A DNA stretch of 48,145 nucleotides from the IMG/VR virus record IMGVR_UViG_2526164669_000027; one strand, written 5' to 3'. Of this stretch, positions 26,659 to 27,512 are shown piece by piece (the first letter of the stretch is position 1; each line of letters opens with the position of its first letter). A program made the translations under genes and the position numbers. The notes beneath the pieces are model-generated. The model worked only from the letters and a program-made list of their open reading frames with translations. It ran no database searches and was not told the DNA's origin. This stretch comes from a virus (taxonomy: Duplodnaviria > Heunggongvirae > Uroviricota > Caudoviricetes).

Positions 26659-27040
26659 TGCCGCCTCCTCCGCCACGCAGGCGCGAGAACAGGCCGGACA
26701 CCAGTGATGCAATATCCTGCTGGTGGATGAACGACAGAATCTTCACCGACACCACCGCCACCAGCACCGCACACAGTGCATCCGCAGATGTACCGTCATA
26801 ACCTGTTTTTGATGCAATCCAGGCTGACAGTACACGCGCCCCCAGCACACCAACAATGAACGACACCAGAAAATGTGCCGCCACACGCCAGGCTGAAATC
26901 TTCTGCGGCATCGTTGCCACAAACAACGCCCCGGCGAACGCACCAAACACAATCCCGAAATCCGTTCCGGTAAACAGCCCGAATACCGTCGCCCCGCCGA
27001 GCGCCGCAGCCGTGCCGGAACCGGACAAGGGTTCAGACAT
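26648..27040 (-). CDS. putative holin (Gly-rich multi-TM protein, 130 aa)
   Basis: Three predicted hydrophobic helices; AGGAG RBS; first gene of the lysis cluster. Confidence 0.55.
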   Translation of the reverse strand: MSEPLSGSGTAAALGGATVFGLFTGTDFGIVFGAFAGALFVATMPQKISAWRVAAHFLVSFIVGVLGARVLSAWIASKTGYDGTSADALCAVLVAVVSVKILSFIHQQDIASLVSGLFSRLRGGGGGNVK

Positions 27041-27512
27041 ACGTTTTTCTCCTGTAAATAAAAAAGGGCCTCTGTCGGCCCGTAAAAAAACACCCCGTCA
27101 AAGGCACCCGCAGATACCTTTTGTGTGGCGCTATCTGATGTGATGTGCGCCAGGCGTGGCGCGGATATGAAAAAGGCCCGCCGCAGCGAGCCATATGCAT
27201 AGGTAAAAAAAATGCCCACACATAAGGCGGGCTAACGCAATGTAATGATGAAACAGAGTTTACTTGTATAGATGTTATAAGAATGCGCCGTCAGCCTGCT
27301 GTGCAAACTGGCAAATCGTAGGCCCGGAAACAGACAACGACGCATTCTGGTATCACCTCATCCCTGCAACATGCAGGGATGACTACAAAAAAAGCACTGA
27401 AACTGTAGGCGGTCAGGTCTACAGAATGAAGAACAACAAATCCACCTGCCAGGTCTGTTCTTCACGAAAATTCGCCAGTGCTGATAATAAAGCTATGACT
27501 CATCAGTTTTAC

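Follow-up and report, generated by a model that had tools for sequence, protein, structure and literature searches.

The interval between the tRNA-Gly(UCC) gene and the first holin gene was analyzed in IMG/VR record IMGVR_UViG_2526164669_000027, a 48,145-nucleotide (nt) stretch of Caudoviricetes DNA that is referred to below, at its full length, as the window. The gap (27041–27516, 476 bp) is non-coding and is read here, with a probability of roughly 0.55, as the structured trailer of a phage tRNA-Gly gene combined with a multi-terminator insulator before the lysis genes of a P27-like lambdoid prophage. The trailer holds a cloverleaf-like RNA structure that is supported by covariation and appears to be undescribed, in an otherwise familiar setting of terminators and a cargo (moron) slot. 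The perfect hairpin that prompted the analysis is itself of little consequence.

Features of the tRNA-to-holin interval

The late genes of the window are on the minus strand, and the features are given below in the order in which a late transcript would cross them.

27517–27589, minus strand: tRNA-Gly, anticodon UCC (ARAGORN; Rfam tRNA model, 51.6 bits)
27483–27516, minus strand: AU-rich spacer of ~33 nt, from the tRNA 3' end to the cloverleaf (sequence)
27393–27482, minus strand: cloverleaf-like four-way-junction RNA (minimum free energy (MFE) fold, covariance model)
27476–27482 with 27393–27399: cloverleaf closing stem, AGCACUG/CAGUGCU
27464–27475, 27428–27463 and 27403–27424: cloverleaf arms 1, 2 and 3
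27387–27392, minus strand: cloverleaf U-tract (U7 counting 27393), directly past the closing stem, a terminator-like 3' end
27358–27382, no strand assigned: perfect hairpin with an 11-bp stem and a 3-nt loop, in the variable linker from the cloverleaf U-tract to the long hairpin
27271–27357, minus strand: long imperfect hairpin ‘D’, core stem 27280–27348 (fold)
27205–27232, minus strand: predicted terminator T1, GCCCGCC..GGGC stem and U8 (scan; -11.4 kcal/mol)
27170–27192, minus strand: predicted terminator T2, GGCUCGC-UGCG-GCGGGCC and U5 (scan; -14.5 kcal/mol)
27135–27140, no strand assigned: empty cargo (moron) slot (blastn break-points in P27, STEC307, EC11 and O145 RM13514; annotations)
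27084–27132, minus strand: possible extra terminator, extended hairpin 27089–27132 and U7 at 27084–27090 (fold)
27060–27081, minus strand: predicted terminator T3, GGGCC-GACAGA-GGCCC and U6 (scan; -11.6 kcal/mol)
26648–27040, minus strand: holin 1, first gene of the lysis cassette (Pfam Phage_holin_8, E = 6e-24)

Conservation and covariation of the cloverleaf

The cloverleaf is ~95 nt long and ends in a U-tract. Its closing-stem pattern was found 21–34 nt past 45 of the 46 tRNA-Gly(UCC) genes in the fetched loci, or in 32/33 cases when distinct downstream sequences were counted. The 46th gene (locus L103) was missed by the sequence pattern because of compensatory changes in its closing stem, to GCGCUG/CAGCGC; there the covariance model scored 50.2 bits. 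Among all aligned variants the closing stem RGCACUG...CAGUGCY was near-invariant and was followed by U5–U8. Despite unrelated arm sequences (arm 2, for example, pairs GAAGAACA/UGUUCUUC, GGGAUGU/ACAUCCU or GGGAGCAGG/UCUGUUCUC), 21 of the 23 distinct variants folded independently by MFE into one four-way junction.

A covariance model, R1, was built from a single sequence type, different from that of the window. All other types were recovered at full length (E = 1e-5 to 1e-13), and the window copy was matched at 27382–27486 (30.4 bits, E = 2e-6). On the covariance-model alignment 93.5% of cells were paired, vs. 82.4% in shuffles and 32–52% with partners slid, percentages inflated by the fitting of the alignment to the model's structure; the independent folds of single sequences point the same way. 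Compensatory double changes were present in 17 of the 29 cloverleaf pairs, and the observed value was reached in none of 500 shuffles. As ~15% of paired cells were G.U, the structure belongs to the late-transcript strand. MAFFT and RNAalifold, applied to all types together, recovered partial structure only, because the arms misalign, and this alignment was replaced by that of the covariance model.

A search against Rfam 15 in permissive E-value mode (positions 25000–30000 and five related loci) returned tRNAs and sub-threshold noise only, the noise including suhB/mmgR hits at the terminators and mir-983/mir-92 hits on the long hairpin. The cloverleaf was not called as a tRNA by ARAGORN, and the Rfam tRNA model had no match there at E ≤ 1. 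No published description of the cloverleaf was found in the searchable literature.

Recognizable tRNA-Gly was lost from the EC11-type loci L008, L011 and L022, where the cloverleaf, the long hairpin and T1 were intact; the structured module is thus maintained without its tRNA. In phage SerU-LTIIb (locus L003), an LT-IIb prophage, the set of tRNA-Gly, cloverleaf and holin 1 is present twice in tandem, and the two cloverleaves (4152–4259 and 6052–6162) are of different sequence types. The spacer between tRNA and cloverleaf contains a 13-codon mini-ORF (open reading frame), MSHSFIISTGEFS (27462–27503, minus strand), without a Shine-Dalgarno sequence, that stays in frame despite a 3-nt deletion in three B-allele loci and is not retained in the E allele (alleles are described below).

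Long hairpin and distribution of the unit

Hairpin D (~85 nt) contains many G.U pairs and folded at -33.5 kcal/mol (z = -3.7). A homologous long hairpin followed the U-tract in all 15 sequence types folded, with some compensatory changes between alleles. One sequence type of cloverleaf plus long hairpin was present in 388 of 5426 complete E. coli genomes (~7%), almost always unannotated. Beyond E. coli, Shigella flexneri and Escherichia ruysiae were the only species in which the covariance model confirmed copies. A first pattern scan of the genome-contig collection returned no copies, because this collection holds one genome per species; a second, looser contig scan gave model-confirmed loci in Escherichia/Shigella only, and three unconfirmed matches in metagenome-assembled genomes. 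Loci L030–L032 of the metagenome scan were rejected as chance pattern matches in unrelated sequences.

The U-tract after the cloverleaf pairs with the A-rich 3' flank of the long hairpin (UUUUUACAACA with UGUUGUAAAAA) in main-family loci, including L087 (1444–1540) and L034 (2177–2280). Hence the base of the long hairpin and the terminator U-tract either form as alternatives or stack on each other.

Predicted terminators and promoters

Intrinsic terminators were called from a GC-rich stem of ≥5 bp, a loop of 3–8 nt and ≥5 U within 8 nt. By these criteria T1, T2 and T3 were called on the late-gene strand (z = -3.5 to -4.0), and the T1 stem is preserved through compensatory changes in the B and E alleles. 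T3 lies 12 nt upstream of the holin Shine-Dalgarno sequence AGGAGA (27048–27053), and ~40 nt upstream of the holin start in most loci with a located holin start; the holin ribosome-binding site is also conserved in the gap among relatives. The possible terminator at 27084–27132 is weaker than T1–T3, with an outer stem made of G.U pairs and part of the U-tract. Across a 3.5-kb scan, 14 terminator-like sites were counted vs. 3.8 ± 2.1 expected, and the same terminator series, in different sequences, was present in ETEC1748 and STEC307. An earlier note on this DNA had suggested an RNA processing or attenuation element here; signals for transcript ends are indeed predicted in the interval, as three canonical terminator hairpins on the transcribed strand, but not at the perfect hairpin. 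No plus-strand terminators were found in the gap by the scan, and an antisense small RNA (sRNA) like PasA was rejected on this ground.

For the tRNA and cloverleaf, no minus-strand promoter was found at 27041–27806 in a consensus scan, and nothing conserved was seen in the spacers by eye. Promoter-like matches for a candidate late promoter pR' were located only at 29380–29444 (minus strand).

Proposed model of late transcription

From the sequence features, conservation, covariation and synteny observed, a model was drawn up in which termination, read-through, promoter positions and any processing are deduced. The transcript would contain, in order, tRNA-Gly, the AU-rich spacer, the cloverleaf with its U-tract, the variable linker with the hairpin, the long hairpin, T1, T2, the empty slot, the possible terminator, T3 and the holin ribosome-binding site. 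The lambdoid Q protein makes polymerase resist terminators downstream of pR', as is established for lambda, phage 82 and Stx phages. Without Q, a polymerase arriving from the tRNA or from upstream genes would halt at the cloverleaf U-tract or at the back-up terminators; a discrete tRNA-Gly/cloverleaf precursor would be released, and holin and endolysin would stay silent in the lysogen. After induction, Q-modified polymerase would pass all terminators and the lysis genes would be expressed. By the same logic the toxin genes of P27, with stx2e between T2 and T3, would be Q-dependent. The perfect hairpin would be a stem-loop added in the indel-tolerant linker of one allele.

The perfect 11-bp hairpin

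The hairpin arms, TCATCCCTGCA (27358–27368) and TGCAGGGATGA (27372–27382), are complementary at 11/11 positions around the loop ACA; the palindrome first described at this site is real, though its coordinates (27359–27384) and its ‘ac’ loop were off by 1–2 nt. The stem is GC-rich in the sense applied to terminator stems (6 G-C pairs of 11), and the local RNA fold was -18.7 kcal/mol (z = -5.4). Chance occurrence was estimated from 200 first-order Markov simulations of the 48-kb window, counting perfect stems of ≥11 bp with loops of 3–8 nt. The simulated windows had a mean of 0.055 such stems, and ≥1 in 5% of simulations; the real window has two. The second, at 515–539, is a perfect 12-bp palindrome, AAAACCCGGCTT-A-AAGCCGGGTTTT, that lies between A and T runs and looks like a bidirectional terminator.

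No U-tract was found 0–2 nt 3' of the hairpin stem on either strand, and the hairpin was not listed by the terminator scan. The stem is followed on the minus strand by GGUGAUACC, and on the plus strand by CUAC and then an A7 run (27387–27393), 4 nt past the stem. The A-run reported to follow the palindrome is thus present on the plus strand, but on the transcribed strand it is the U-tract of a separate, conserved upstream structure. This U-tract lies 5' of the hairpin in the transcript, so that on neither strand does the hairpin qualify as an intrinsic terminator. The half-site did not recur beyond chance within the window, and no promoter overlapping the hairpin was found in the consensus scan. 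In IMG/VR the palindrome was confined to a single sequence context, that of the W allele. A mobile or repeated element was accordingly rejected, as the IMG/VR palindrome occurs in one context only, and so was a repeated operator, as the half-site is not repeated in the window.

The segment 27193–27516 occurs as three alleles, W, B and E, and the hairpin is found only in W. The W allele was represented by the window, six E. coli genomes at ~99% identity, and IMG/VR and food-metagenome contigs; the B and E alleles are ~70–73% identical to it across the full length. In the B allele 11 nt are absent exactly at one hairpin arm (the size difference from W equals one arm length), and in the E allele an unrelated 14-nt insertion stands at the hairpin position, so that no hairpin is possible in either. 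The hairpin was present in all 9 distinct W-allele sequences, bar one terminal-pair change; the variants within W were one loop change and one terminal-pair break, uncompensated. Absence from two alleles and the missing 3' U-tract speak against the suggestion that the hairpin is a conserved processing or attenuation element. It is probably an allele-specific accessory stem-loop in an indel-tolerant linker, and most likely has no conserved role of its own.

Modules and the cargo slot

Three modules make up the gap: 27000–27134, 27141–27192 and 27193–27516. The first comprises the holin 5' end and leader, and lies upstream of holin 1 in P27, STEC307, EC11 and enterotoxigenic E. coli (ETEC) strains; by BLAST, parts of the holin-proximal ~150 bp of the gap were found in 1220 E. 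coli records. The second carries T2, and stands between argO and stxA in P27 and immediately upstream of TerB-DUF3927 in STEC307, EC11 and O145:H28 RM13514. The third, which bears the hairpin, is rarer than the other two.

The junction 27134/27141 is contiguous, with no cargo, in the window, ETEC1748 and TW11681; the slot is occupied by stx2eAB and L27 in P27, and by TerB-DUF3927 in STEC307, EC11 and O145 RM13514. As the modules are contiguous here and separated by cargo in relatives, a moron slot was placed at ~27135–27140, empty in the window. Constant flanks and alternative cargo at one junction, which define such a slot, were both found at 27134/27141. Morons typically bring their own terminators. 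The module break-points fall at ~27135–27140 and ~27193, and none falls at the hairpin (27358–27382).

Alignment across Stx-phage and stx-negative relatives located the cargo slot, but the hairpin was not conserved between alleles. The gap had been proposed as the place where stx would sit: P27 does carry stx2e in the same tRNA-to-holin interval, which is filled there by ileZ, argO, stx2eAB and L27, but the hairpin is ~220 bp from the slot. A scar of stx loss is not borne out for the hairpin, which lies outside the cargo junction and within the 27193–27516 module. In most strains covered by a 2025 survey of porcine Shiga toxin-producing E. coli (PMC12571312), stx2e had the methyltransferase on one side and two holin genes on the other.

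Gene order and neighboring sequences

The neighboring genes were placed as follows.

30897–31262, minus strand: Q
27807–28853: DNA methyltransferase, upstream of tRNA-Gly
26380–26712 by ORF scan: holin 2 (Phage_holin_3_7), a 279-nt gene according to PGAP
25833–26378: GH108 endolysin, after holin 2 (Pfam; PGAP annotation of RM11911)

The minus-strand order is Q, a reverse-oriented DUF4236 gene, a small TrmB-like ORF, the methyltransferase, tRNA-Gly, the gap, holins 1 and 2, and the GH108 endolysin. The synteny of Q, methylase, tRNA-Gly, gap, two holins and GH108 endolysin matches that of P27 and of the E. coli RM11911 prophage, the latter being 99.6% identical and with nothing annotated in the gap by PGAP. 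None of the four gap ORFs (99, 62, 37 and 35 aa) had a Pfam match; they overlap the tRNA or the terminators, and indels between alleles disrupt every frame. The view of the earlier note that the gap has no convincing ORF agrees with the Pfam searches, the allele indels and the RM11911 annotation, and its flanks, a tRNA and a holin, were confirmed by ARAGORN, Rfam and Pfam. Likewise, in this P27-like prophage with a non-coding tRNA-to-lysis interval, the late transcript must cross the gap before the lysis genes, as had been stated. The minus-strand orientation of the late genes and the structures conserved among relatives had been overlooked.

The tRNA-Gly(UCC) gene was the sole tRNA gene detected in the late-region array of the window. 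Immediately 5' of it, at 27595–27640 (minus strand), the sequence GCUGGCUU...UUCGUGUGAUUCCGG...AAGCCAGU resembles an internally deleted tRNA. In relatives a tRNA-Thr lies 3 nt upstream of tRNA-Gly; the sequence at 27595–27640 was not called by ARAGORN or Rfam.

Between Q and the late genes, on the opposite strand, lies a gene for a 395-aa DUF4236 protein (29542–30729, plus strand). This is a second variable slot, since the RM11911 prophage, near-identical elsewhere, encodes a different ORF of 159 aa there. A perfect 10-bp palindrome, TTACATTCCA-GTA-TGGAATGTAA (29489–29511), is located between the DUF4236 gene start and the promoter-like sites at 29380–29444 (minus strand), and a weak terminator-like site (29332–29344) is found past those sites. 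The region around this palindrome may be a late-promoter or operator region. In the TW11681 prophage (L034) a weak Rfam isrK match (2837–2909, minus strand; 22.7 bits, E = 0.42) was obtained between Q and the tRNA array, where pR' and its terminator tR' are expected.

Alternative explanations

Several points weigh against the proposed combination of tRNA trailer and insulator. Termination at any of the sites, read-through by Q and the position of pR' are all deduced from sequence. An insulator has little to insulate if the region is untranscribed without Q, and the best sigma-70-like match upstream of the tRNA, found by eye, was 8/12 and below the scan threshold. The tandem terminators could be leftovers of successive moron modules and not a selected insulator. 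With its branched 95 nt, the structure goes far beyond the complexity that a terminator requires, and the maintenance of three arms by covariation argues for an extra function. As noted above, the pair percentages behind this covariation are inflated by the fitted alignment, and the window's own cloverleaf is thermodynamically unremarkable (z = -1.9). The covarying cloverleaf arms and the >20-bp helix of the long hairpin suggest an additional role, as a stable RNA, a processing site or an RNase III boundary.

It is possible, though less likely than the main reading, that the cloverleaf and long hairpin form a structured RNA with a function of its own and not a mere terminator. The cloverleaf could then be a stable tRNA-shaped RNA, freed from the tRNA precursor to work as an Hfq-type regulator; a decoy that draws host nucleases targeting tRNA; or a platform for RNase P/E processing. 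RNase III might cut at the ~27-bp long hairpin and so part the tRNA unit from the lysis mRNA. Such a role is consistent with compensatory change that maintains all three arms despite unrelated sequences between types, with the intact element in EC11-type loci whose tRNA-Gly has decayed, with a 3' stem and U-tract that form a standard Hfq-binding sRNA 3' end, and with the near-continuous helix of >20 bp, including G.U pairs, in the long hairpin. Small RNAs are also established at moron sites and beside the holin genes of lambdoid prophages, namely AgvB/AsxR (PMC4104026) and the Pas sRNAs (PMC8550237; bioRxiv 10.64898/2026.05.13.724894). However, the element showed no promoter of its own and no conserved single-stranded seed, its loops varying freely, and there was neither sequence similarity to PasA, PasC and PasD2 nor a match to any Rfam family, including tRNA, C4 and STnc100; the best-conserved part, the closing stem and U-tract, is what a terminator needs. 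That the ~95-nt cloverleaf and ~85-nt hairpin are an undescribed phage structured-RNA family, accompanying tRNA-Gly(UCC) in Escherichia/Shigella lambdoid prophages and possibly functioning beyond termination, is rather doubtful. If true, the RNA could serve as a tRNA-shaped decoy or as a platform for processing, or it could be a boundary, defined by a nuclease, at which the lysis mRNA acquires its 5' end and its stability, and such a boundary would control the timing or leakiness of lysis.

For the perfect hairpin, a functional RNA element of the W allele was considered: a stem-loop that stabilizes the 5' end of processed lysis mRNA, a site of nuclease action, or a signal for pausing or attenuation of the late transcript. 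This is unlikely. The hairpin is highly stable (-18.7 kcal/mol, z = -5.4), lies above chance expectation (0.055 for the window), is kept in the 9 distinct W sequences apart from the terminal-pair change, and lies on the late transcript just 3' of the likely processing or termination point; but the sister alleles without it keep every other structure, its retention inside the allele reflects ~99% overall identity and not selection, no compensatory change was seen, and the stem is too short for RNase III and has no U-tract after it. A role at the DNA level, as the binding site of a dimeric regulator or as a scar of recombination or cargo excision, is still less credible. Dimeric proteins bind perfect palindromes of this type (25 bp), the surrounding region is mosaic and has two variable slots, and the 11-nt difference from the B allele, equal to one arm, is compatible with a templated, hairpin-perfecting insertion. 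Against this, no copies of the half-site beyond chance were seen elsewhere in the window, no promoter overlaps the palindrome, the module break-points (~27135–27140 and ~27193) are not at 27358–27382, and none of the relatives has cargo at the hairpin position.

Comparison with known systems

In the lysogen, the lambda tR' and Stx-phage tR' terminators halt transcription, but Q-modified polymerase overrides them. The window resembles the lambda tR'/6S RNA system and the Stx-phage pR'-tR' unit (StxS) in that predicted intrinsic terminators lie between Q and the lysis genes. Unlike those systems, the terminators here are ~2 kb downstream of the candidate promoter, past the methylase and the tRNA, and three to five stand in series, the first being a branched four-way junction and not a simple hairpin. 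Neither lambda tR'/6S nor StxS has sequence or Rfam similarity to the window. In such systems the terminated product can be a stable small RNA (PMC7547250).

The constant flanks with variable cargo between tRNAs and holin are like those of lambdoid moron sites (stx, TerB and nanS-p slots; promoter-gene-terminator cassettes). Unlike occupied sites, the slot here is empty, and the hairpin is ~220 bp off, in a different module. The location between Q or moron genes and a holin-lysozyme operon, and the ending in a stem-loop and U-tract, are shared with AgvB/AsxR and PasA/PasC/PasD, as found here by synteny and predicted structure. PasA and PasC are antisense to the late operon, whereas all structures here are sense; those RNAs are simple-hairpin sRNAs of 50–240 nt, unlike the cloverleaf, and the holin here (Phage_holin_8) belongs to a different family from the one associated with them. 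PasA, PasC and PasD2 (from E2348/69, published coordinates) gave only chance 9–13-mers against the window in blastn-short, and Rfam families searched in 25000–30000 included no prophage sRNA match.

Like a tRNA, the cloverleaf is a four-way junction closed by its 5' and 3' ends, with a 7–9-bp closing stem and three hairpin arms, in tandem with true tRNAs. Unlike a tRNA, it is ~95 nt long with oversized arms and loops, shows no evident D-loop or T-loop consensus on inspection, has a 1–3-nt spacer before the 3' strand, and carries a U-tract in place of NCCA. The T4 species 1 and 2 RNAs and 3'ETS-leuZ are structured non-tRNA RNAs co-transcribed directly downstream of tRNA genes, and in this the cloverleaf would resemble them. 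They are not known to be four-way junctions with an invariant stem and U-tract or to precede lysis genes.

Significance

The analysis brings to light an RNA structure that is supported by covariation and lacks annotation in hundreds of E. coli genomes. The insertion point of cargo such as stx2e is now fixed between two terminator blocks, and therefore the toxin genes of P27 are bracketed by terminators and should depend on Q. The holin sets the time of host killing, and its transcript also includes the toxin genes in Stx and LT-II prophages; signals that exclude polymerase from this region in the lysogen would bear on spontaneous lysis and toxin release.

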